64,000 nucleotides of DNA. Source: an uncultured Gemmataceae bacterium (GTDB lineage: Bacteria; Planctomycetota; Planctomycetia; Gemmatales; Gemmataceae). The notes under the pieces were generated by a model. It worked only from the letters and a program-made list of their open reading frames with translations. It was not told the DNA's origin and did no database searches. The DNA is taken from the NCBI GenBank assembly GCA_963750165.1, contig CAVVPN010000012.1, forward strand, positions 672,001 to 736,000. Direction: 5' to 3'. Positions 29,918 through 44,888 of the stretch are shown here, in pieces. Positions within the stretch are counted from its first letter, which is position 1. Each line of letters begins with the position of its first letter. The position numbers were made by a program, and so were the translations under genes.

Positions 29918-30385
29918 TCAGAAGTGTTTCCAGAACACGACCATATCGTCGCCGTCGCTGTAGTAGTCGCGCAGCACGGCGCCCTGTTCGTAGCCGTGCT
30001 TGAGATAGAAGCGCCGCGTCAGCTCGTAGTGCGGCAGCGACGAGGTTTCGATGAACAGCACCCGACCGCCGGCGGTGCGGATGTCCTCCTCGGCCCGGTG
30101 CAGCAGCCGTGTGCCGACGCCCTTCGCCTGCGTGTGCCGGGTCACCGCGATCCAGTACAGATACCACGAGCGGTCGGTCATCGCCGCCGGCGCGTAGTAG
30201 GCGAAGCCGATCACCTCGCCGTCTTTCTCGTAGCTGGTGCAGAGGTGGCCGTGAGCGTGGTTGGTGGCGTGGTAGTCGTCGAGGACCTCCTTGAGGGCGT
30301 CGATTTCAATGGTCTTGAAGACATCGGTGCCGTGAGCCAGGGCCAGTAGCACGGGCGTGTCCTCGGGTCGTGTCGGCCGGATCAT
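29918..30385 (-). CDS. GNAT family N-acetyltransferase
   Basis: MIRP start; WYLYWIAV....QAKGVG..LL; IETSS..Y..TRRFY.KHGY. Confidence 0.9.
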   Translation of the reverse strand: MIRPTRPEDTPVLLALAHGTDVFKTIEIDALKEVLDDYHATNHAHGHLCTSYEKDGEVIGFAYYAPAAMTDRSWYLYWIAVTRHTQAKGVGTRLLHRAEEDIRTAGGRVLFIETSSLPHYELTRRFYLKHGYEQGAVLRDYYSDGDDMVVFWKHF

Positions 30386-30498
30386 GGTGGGACCACTCTC
30401 TTGAAAAATGGCGGCGGAAAGGTTGTTGCTGGGCATCGGTTTCGTTCTACCAGAGCCGCGCCGCCGGGGCAACGGACAACGGACGACGGGCCACGGAC

Positions 30499-30543
30499 AA
30501 AAAAAACAGGGGCTTCGCCGCTGGGCGCGACGAGAACCCCTGT
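30499..30543 (-). terminator. Intrinsic terminator
   Basis: Minus strand reads ACAGGGGTTC...GAAGCCCCTGT hairpin ending in a run of 8 T. Confidence 0.8.
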
Positions 30544-30700
30544 CTCGGTGGAGGATGCCGCCCCCGGATGGAGGCCGTGGCCGCAGCGTCACCGAGGAGC
30601 GCTTCGGCAGGAAGGAATGACAAAGGTGGCGCCTTCCAGGCGCAGTTGGGGAGTCGGGCGAGGAAGGGGAGCGAGCGGGGAGGGCGTCGAGTTCACACCT
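30499..30700 (-). ncRNA. Candidate ~200-nt small RNA with multiple CCUCC/CUCCC anti-SD-like motifs
   Basis: Lies between a consensus sigma70 promoter (30707-30735) and an intrinsic terminator; no credible ORF. Confidence 0.55.
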
Positions 30701-30706
30701 TGTACA

Positions 30707-30735
30707 AGGCTAGGTCGCAAACCGCGGCCTGTCAA
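30707..30735 (-). promoter_or_regulatory. Sigma70 promoter (minus strand)
   Basis: TTGACA (30735-30730)-17 nt-TAGCCT (30712-30707). Confidence 0.7.
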
Positions 30736-30770: not shown

Positions 30771-30923
30771 TCAGCGGGCCTGGTTGGCCATGACCCAGAG
30801 CATGTAGGCGATGCGCTCGCGCAGGGTTTGTTCCCGTTTGACCCGGTCGGTGGCGTAGGCGCGCCACATGTAAAAGATGCTGGCCACGGCGAGCGCAGCG
30901 ATGGAGCAATTGACCAAGTGCAT
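30771..30923 (-). CDS. 50-aa small membrane protein (MHLVNCSIAALAVASIFYMWRAY...LRERIAYMLWVMANQAR)
   Basis: GAAGGA RBS; N-terminal TM helix; LRER.AYMLWVMA motif resembles a small planctomycete protein family. Confidence 0.7.
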   Translation of the reverse strand: MHLVNCSIAALAVASIFYMWRAYATDRVKREQTLRERIAYMLWVMANQAR

Positions 30924-31139
30924 GACACACGATCCTTCCGACGGGTTGCAGGGAAACTGAGCCGATGACAAAACCTAGCTCACGCCGTCAACCCAGGCAA
31001 CTGCCCAGGTGTGTTGATTTCCGCAAAAAAACCAGGGCCGAGCCGGTTGCTGGCCGGGCGGCGCCGCGGCCGTTAGCATGAGGAGGCCGGGGCCGCCGCG
31101 CGCGGGGCGACGCGGGCCGGCGGACGGGGGCGGCGATTC

Positions 31140-31613: not shown

Positions 31614-31620
31614 ACCATAT

Positions 31621-31690
31621 GATCCACAGATGACACAGATAAAAGACAAAAATCAATTCTTCTGTCTTTTATCTGTGTCATCTGTGGATC
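31621..31690. repeat. CACAGAT-type palindrome between convergent genes (related to 50342-50428)
   Basis: GATCCACAGATGACACAGATAAAAGACA / TGTCTTTTATCTGTGTCATCTGTGGATC perfect arms. Confidence 0.85.
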
Positions 31691-31697
31691 GTATGCG

Positions 31698-44736: not shown

Positions 44737-44821
44737 TGAAAGGCGTTACGACGCAGGCGTGACGCAGAGGCTTGCCTCCAAAGGAGTGCCACCAGAACTG
44801 GCATTCCCCGTTGCTGCTACA

Positions 44822-44850
44822 ACTGTAGGTCAGAATCGCCTGCCGGGCAA
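44822..44850 (-). promoter_or_regulatory. Sigma70 promoter driving the riboswitch transcript
   Basis: TTGCCC (44850-44845)-17 nt-TACAGT (44827-44822). Confidence 0.6.
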
Positions 44851-44888
44851 ACCGCTGGCTGAATCTTTTCAGGGTTCTTCGGATTCCC

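Follow-up and report, generated by a model that had tools for sequence, protein, structure and literature searches.

On comparative sequence evidence, an element on the minus strand of an uncultured Gemmataceae genome is real and belongs to an RNA family absent from Rfam, a genuine and apparently undescribed family of structured small RNAs (sRNAs) of Planctomycetia. The element lies in the window, the whole stretch of 64,000 nucleotides analysed here, and positions are those of the window unless a contig is named. The preliminary description had proposed an independent sRNA gene bounded by its own promoter and terminator, which is supported by conservation, by covariation and by stand-alone copies; the check for homology and covariation that it had called for places the element in a family with covarying hairpins. 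As judged from sequence, the gene has its own promoter and terminator irrespective of its neighbours, in agreement with the class of trans-acting sRNAs that carry anti-Shine-Dalgarno (anti-SD) motifs. A conserved structured sRNA with an invariant seed would be a direct handle on RNA regulation in Gemmatales.

The RNA locus and its parts

The locus comprises the following features, given in the direction of transcription:

30972..31000, minus strand: promoter-like site of the small-protein gene, TTGCCT-17-TAGGTT, with TGAGC before the -10 box
30771..30923, minus strand: gene of a 50-aa protein with a hydrophobic N-terminal half and a basic C-terminal half containing RERxxYxLW
30707..30735, minus strand: promoter-like site of the RNA, TTGACA-17-TAGCCT, with CGACC before the -10 box
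30609..30700, minus strand: 5' part, variable and C-rich, with anti-SD-like tracts; start predicted at about 30700
30580..30608, minus strand: hairpin P1, whose loop CUCGGUG (30596-30590) is the 5' strand of a predicted pseudoknot
30560..30575, minus strand: hairpin P2, variable in length
30544..30559, minus strand: near-invariant GGCAUCCUCCACCGAG, comprising the candidate seed GGCAUCCUCC and then the pseudoknot 3' strand
30499..30543, minus strand: intrinsic-terminator-like hairpin and T run, with 98% of cells paired in the alignment
30444..30472, minus strand: weak promoter-like site TTGCCC-17-TAGAAC, 3' of the terminator, possibly for the GNAT gene
29918..30385, minus strand: GNAT acetyltransferase gene, a neighbour outside the system

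Both boundaries are present on the minus strand as first described, namely TTGACA (30735-30730) and TAGCCT (30712-30707) separated by 17 nt, and the GC hairpin with eight Ts (30543-30499). A generic scanner lists neither, the -10 box being too far off consensus and the terminator loop too long, and the fold z-score of the whole RNA is only -1.7; the single sequence is thus weak evidence, and it is the conservation of the promoter pattern across loci that makes the evidence for the element strong. The RNA is single-copy in its genome, and no terminator is seen between the 50-aa ORF and the RNA. The weak site downstream is off consensus in the last base of its -10 box and is a lead only.

The element holds no credible ORF, in keeping with the initial reading: none with ATG and at least 10 aa occurs in the RNA itself, and short ORFs are present in 9 of 36 homologues with none in common. 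That the element is not an RNA gene, being a conserved terminator or a short peptide gene, is scarcely credible. Its modest z-score would fit, and an invariant 18-mer is readable as the codons GILHRD, but covarying P1 and P2 lie upstream of the terminator, homologues share no ORF, and all 104 motifs counted have at least two mismatches to same-sense kinase genes. Antisense pairing to kinase HRD codons was rejected as well, as it would require the wrong strand.

All the pyrimidine tracts named in the preliminary description are present, and the RNA contains 11 anti-SD-like 5-mers, compared with 3.9 +/- 2.1 in dinucleotide shuffles (6 of 1,000 as high). The proposed set of about seven anti-SD tracts therefore stands as to presence, but not as a set of equivalent unpaired seeds: CCUCC at 30574 forms the 5' side of P2, CUCCUC at 30599 extends into the loop of P1, and invariance is confined to the tract at 30554.

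An RNA family across Planctomycetia

Homologues were found at 61 distinct loci in Gemmatales and other Planctomycetia (62 with the locus described here, duplicates removed), and at least 53 further loci are metagenomic; the hosts are dozens of mostly uncultured planctomycetes. A DNA search of 61 related genomes located the 3' core downstream of the small ORF. A pattern scan of GTDB species genomes returned 65 loci, of which 60 are genuine and five (L039, L047, L065, L078, L082) were dropped as chance matches; nearly all records are Gemmataceae, Gemmatales or unclassified Planctomycetota. Five records with Alcaligenaceae titles (L043, L061, L066, L080, L083) carry a Gemmatales locus and the small ORF and look mislabelled, one locus being equal to that of a same-family genome.

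In the order, where only 22 candidates per genome were scored, a covariance model matched 27 of 151 genomes, two of them weakly. Of 141 genomes around another family it matched 10, and 7 of these lie outside the order, in four other families. When checked on 54 member-looking and 32 chance-looking loci from among at least 120 metagenomic matches, and on 14 others, it matched 53 of the member-looking loci and none of the chance-looking ones. Many Gemmataceae genera lack the RNA in the genomes searched, and on an unrooted FliA tree of 30 genomes its presence needs four changes, which fits repeated loss. One genome (G151) has two copies in tandem (L110/L123, G151:C1:6202012-6202316); L185 and L186 likewise are double copies, tandem or nearby. 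A wider range suggested by a bare 14-mer was rejected: among its 40 matches in 301 genomes of the class, 13 are known members and the other 27 lack the family promoter and terminator.

Family members share a layout of promoter, variable C-rich 5' part, P1, P2, near-invariant GGCAUCCUCCACCGA and intrinsic terminator, and predicted RNA lengths range from 159 to 263 nt (36 loci). In the same 36 loci the C-rich part averages 3.3 anti-SD 5-mers, against 1.8 after shuffling and 0.2 on the reverse strand.

The RNA was rightly called unannotated. Rfam gives no credible match in the region at E up to 10, SRP RNA and RNase P included, and none at gathering scores for nine homologous loci. Two housekeeping candidates are encoded elsewhere in the genome, 6S RNA (RF00013) at G000:C12:1023817-1024003 and tmRNA, called by ARAGORN, on C11. 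Literature searches gave no description of the family and no regulatory sRNA of this type in Gemmatales, among others in PMC4615179, PMC8034643, PMC10746234 and PMC2864571, and the main texts of PMC11109978 and PMC8632094, whose supplements could list such a motif, do not mention planctomycetes. Elsewhere in the window, an AT-rich near-perfect palindrome between convergent genes (31616-31695) draws spurious Rfam miRNA matches; a 17-mer of it has 38 occurrences per query in the genome, which marks it as a MITE- or REP-like repeat family.

Conserved fold and the invariant 15-mer

The fold was assessed in two alignments, A2 (53 of 62, after removal of long or odd loci) and A3 (68 model matches, fitted to the nested helices). 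Two-sided changes occur at 9 of 9 pairs in P1, 6 of 6 in P2 and 6-7 of 13 in the terminator, and 87% (A2) and 93% (A3) of helix cells are paired, against 38-53% when the helices are slid; the shuffle control is inflated because the sequences are related. The terminator has many U-G pairs, which settle the strand of the RNA.

The internal CUCGGUG/CACCGAG stem proposed earlier has both its halves, but the 5' half is the loop of the covarying P1, and the pairing is best read as a probable pseudoknot formed from that loop. Across the family the loop, YUCGGU, complements ACCGAG just 5' of the terminator, with 93-94% of cells paired; two-sided change is seen at 3 of 6 pairs, each in a single sequence. 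By eye, L119 and L433 keep seven pairs with altered letters. L175, L211 and L435 have four pairs only, and in L434, L183, L185, L186, L214 and L217 no loop matches the 3' strand, which is nevertheless kept, so the pseudoknot is probable but dispensable in some members. The RNA may also switch between folds.

The 15-nt GGCAUCCUCCACCGA is exact in 60 of the 62 loci, nine of its letters having been fixed by the first search pattern; the second pattern placed no constraint on the 3' strand, which is still nearly invariant. Since the 15-mer is retained even in loci without the pseudoknot loop, an outside partner is likely.

Own promoter and independence from downstream genes

In 36 of the 62 loci the RNA promoter pattern is present at a distance of 100-270 nt 5' of the core, the match in L080 being probably spurious. 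Controls gave 0 of 62 on the other strand and 0, 0, 1 and 0 of 60 in four downstream windows.

The alternative raised in the preliminary description, an attenuating leader of the GNAT gene, did not survive comparison. GNAT follows the RNA in 1 of 62 loci, while hisF and a Tat-signal oxidoreductase-like family follow it in 14 each and at least 11 loci have a convergent gene within 300 nt (hisF, tilS and Gfo/Idh/MocA are presumptive names, assigned from sequence); with downstream genes so varied and often convergent, a GNAT attenuator is ruled out. A riboswitch or attenuator of the downstream gene in general (GNAT here, hisF elsewhere) is very unlikely. A pseudoknot abutting a terminator does resemble riboswitch layouts, and the 14 hisF loci would fit, but genomes that lack the RNA likewise have hisF after the small ORF, which makes the adjacency of hisF a matter of synteny. 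The downstream genes, unrelated or convergent, form no functionally coherent same-strand set, a promoter-like site lies within 200 nt past the terminator in 21 of 62 loci, and no Rfam riboswitch matches at gathering score.

The upstream small-protein gene

The 50-aa protein gene is restricted to Gemmatales (126 of 151 genomes of the order, 0 of 251 other planctomycetes). Databases contain 1901 homologues of the protein, which belongs to no Pfam or NCBIfam family; it is modelled as one long helix (pLDDT 86), and a protein atlas holds no match at 0.9 or more. The gene usually lies upstream of hisF, and many of its leaders share GGAACAGAAACGAGG.

The RNA lies within 300 nt after this ORF in 54 of 61 loci, and the other 7 have no ORF. 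A role as cis-acting 3'-UTR element, by which the small-protein mRNA is stabilised or controlled, would account for this arrangement, for the lack of a terminator between ORF and RNA noted above, and for the 24 of 62 loci that are not stand-alone and have no visible internal promoter. We nevertheless consider it improbable, given the RNA's own promoter in 36 of 62 loci and the stand-alone copies: 5 of the 7 loci without the small ORF match the strict promoter pattern, and the 7 members outside the order all lack the ORF, 6 of them with the same promoter type. Two genomes (G121, G155) carry ORF and RNA on separate contigs, and the RNA was found at 0 of 40 further small-ORF loci without a known adjacent RNA.

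Type III antitoxins are pseudoknots, and a small hydrophobic protein adjoins the sRNA, as expected if RNA and 50-aa membrane-type protein formed a toxin-antitoxin pair of type I or III, the RNA being the antitoxin. The chance of this is slight: duplexes of the RNA with its own leader are no stronger than cross pairs (-52.9 vs -52.9, 53 loci), the protein is present in 126 of 151 genomes of the order and the RNA in about 25, and there is no repeat array.

A shared promoter motif and a candidate regulon

The promoters of 35 RNAs and 85 small ORFs share the motif TTG(A/C)(C/T), 12 nt, (G)T(G/A)A(C/G)C-TANN(G/T)TT, and the small-protein promoter in the window scores 32.7 bits with the matrix, in whose training set it was included. 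A C at -13 is a promoter feature of RpoS. The motif is unlike the tRNA promoters of this genome, in which 16 tRNA genes are arrayed on one strand at G000:C10:88560-90125. Genome-wide, 38 sites exceed 15 bits, the two own promoters from the training set included (other examples are G000:C3:37162(-), C11:97093(-), C3:1857700(+) and C11:770725(+)). The motif precedes 7 of 17 PilZ matches and, at each of the three Flp pilin loci, the first gene, compared with a background of 27 of 6,986 genes, and is also found upstream of two HD-domain genes and of kinases; upstream of one PilZ gene it is kept in 17 of 29 orthologues. It is a candidate mark of a regulon that would include PilZ, Flp pilin, HD-domain, kinase and glycosyltransferase genes. 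Such a motif outlines a conserved pilus/c-di-GMP gene set that can be addressed without knowing the mechanism of the RNA, with a candidate role in the attachment or swarmer stage of budding bacteria. Another strong copy in the window, scoring 29.8 bits, lies at ~44820-44852 on the minus strand, with roughly 1.9 kb free of well-called genes; it possibly serves another small RNA or small ORF.

An autoregulated sigma factor behind the motif was considered, as the motif precedes a sigma gene at C3:451143. This gene is a paralogue, the sigma proteins of five of five relatives tested being closer to C3:1139190, and only one of 30 relatives' loci scores above 15 bits; the idea was therefore rejected. 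Two sigma genes, a fliA-like one (G000:C4:164300-165100) and a second group-2-like one (C3:450700-451800), are each frameshifted in the assembly, possibly through sequencing errors.

Candidate mechanism and target searches

The element likely yields a trans-acting sRNA. Its near-invariant GGCAUCCUCC, which adjoins the predicted pseudoknot, would base-pair at ribosome-binding sites of the GGAGGAUG type, and the pairing would likely block translation without Hfq. This Hfq-free anti-SD sRNA acting on the ribosome-binding sites of mRNAs is our best reading, and we give it an even chance; the repression of multiple targets, as first proposed, is plausible. The complement of the 15-mer, GGAGGAUGCC, is present before start codons in the RNA-bearing genomes examined, and this complementarity, the anti-SD-rich 5' part and an invariance that survives loss of the loop together make an outside partner likely.

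Searches for individual targets gave nothing that recurs. The best seed duplex among 6,986 roughly called genes reaches -26.5 kcal/mol, compared with -24.4 to -28.9 kcal/mol for eight shuffled seeds, and no gene family recurs across genomes among 50 loci taken from about 130 GGAGGATGCC..ATG sites in 30 genomes, together with the sites of the own genome. The fliA gene was discarded as a target, its leader CAGGGAGG being kept both in the 18 genomes with the RNA and in the 12 without it, and a longer leader match not being kept among relatives. No complementarity to the small-ORF leader (-60 to +30) was found, and nothing convincing to 16S rRNA, tmRNA or 6S RNA. The 16S rRNA gene itself, on G000:C11 (16S and 23S genes are on different contigs), appears to be interrupted near its 3' end; the inserted segment, several hundred bases long, seems to contain an ORF and is possibly an intron.

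With all target searches having failed (given a crude gene caller and 50 loci for about 130 sites), a protein-binding RNA becomes a serious rival, though we regard it as rather unlikely. Such an RNA would be a folded decoy or small RNP whose pseudoknot, stacked on the terminator stem, exposes the 15-mer for binding by either the basic 50-aa protein or some protein of the pilus/c-di-GMP programme. An invariant stretch of 15-20 nt is longer than expected of a degenerate seed with many targets; protein binding or a tertiary fold would explain it as well, and no RNA target could be found for it. A second AUCCUCC 5' of P1 in 14 of 62 loci also speaks for protein binding, as do the searches for RNA chaperones: in the 93%-complete genome, Hfq (PF17209) has 0 matches, control rings being found in 5 of 14 genomes, and ProQ and KhpA/B have none over the cut-off. 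A precedent is CcaF1, a small protein that binds RNA and is transcribed together with its sRNAs (PMC8034643). Against the protein-binding reading, the RNA occurs in families in which the 50-aa protein was not found. The genome has seven CsrA paralogues, and a crude scan for a CsrB-like partner RNA gave mostly palindromic repeats. Set against the CsrA consensus, the RNA is not a CsrA sponge: the sense strand has UCC as its family motif and no repeated GGA, the one GGA loop in this RNA being unconserved. A decoy of PilZ leaders was rejected, since the sense GGCATCCTC before one PilZ start codon is absent in 29 of 29 orthologues; a post hoc comparison of its presence in motif-bearing genes (2 of 56) and in all genes (18 of 6,977) gives weak evidence.

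One may speculate, with considerable doubt, that the RNA is one arm of an undescribed planctomycete pilus/c-di-GMP developmental regulon. It would then be a chaperone-free sRNA, co-induced with Flp pilins, PilZ proteins and the 50-aa membrane protein, whose pseudoknot presents or gates an invariant 15-nt recognition sequence for a protein or RNA partner of a new kind.

Comparison with known sRNA systems

AbcR-type sRNAs depend on Hfq. Membership of the cuckoo/AbcR type, which the preliminary description had named as known CCUCC-rich sRNAs, is not supported here, as CCUCCUCCC is present in 1 of 62 loci, Rfam gives no match and no Hfq was found. Cuckoo RNAs consist of two to four adjacent hairpins, each with CCUCCUCCC in the loop (PMC4615179). 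The planctomycete RNA lacks these hairpins and has YUCGGU as its conserved loop; it differs further in its single invariant linker motif, predicted pseudoknot, frequent own promoter and host phylum, and, unlike at the cuckoo CIN1 locus, the adjacent 50-aa protein has no DUF1127.

CsrB/RsmZ sponges are likewise about 200 nt long with their own promoter and terminator, and the planctomycete host has several CsrA paralogues, but repeated GGA loops are replaced by their complement. RsaE and RoxS, C-rich sRNAs of Firmicutes, resemble the RNA in their C-rich single-stranded tracts and proposed pairing with G-rich translation starts, of which RNAIII is a further example (PMC4615179); they differ in architecture, with no match in Rfam by sequence or structure. 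The enterobacterial RydC is also a trans-acting sRNA with a pseudoknot and a seed, and acts on biofilm genes (PMC4337610, PMC3985669). RydC needs Hfq, whereas none was found in the planctomycete genome, where the candidate seed lies within the long connecting loop of the pseudoknot and Rfam again gives no match.

There are likenesses with Alphaproteobacteria too, where cuckoo, alpha-r14 and CcsR-NfeR1 RNAs share anti-SD C-rich motifs (PMC4615179). CcsR1-4 derive from the 3' UTR of ccaF1, a DUF1127 small-protein gene with an RpoHI/HII promoter, and so offer a precedent for a small ORF followed by a C-rich 3'-UTR sRNA under an alternative sigma factor (PMC8034643), and NfeR1 occludes ribosome-binding sites independently of Hfq (PMC10746234). 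The planctomycete RNA probably works like such C-rich anti-SD sRNAs, while belonging to neither cuckoo nor AbcR.
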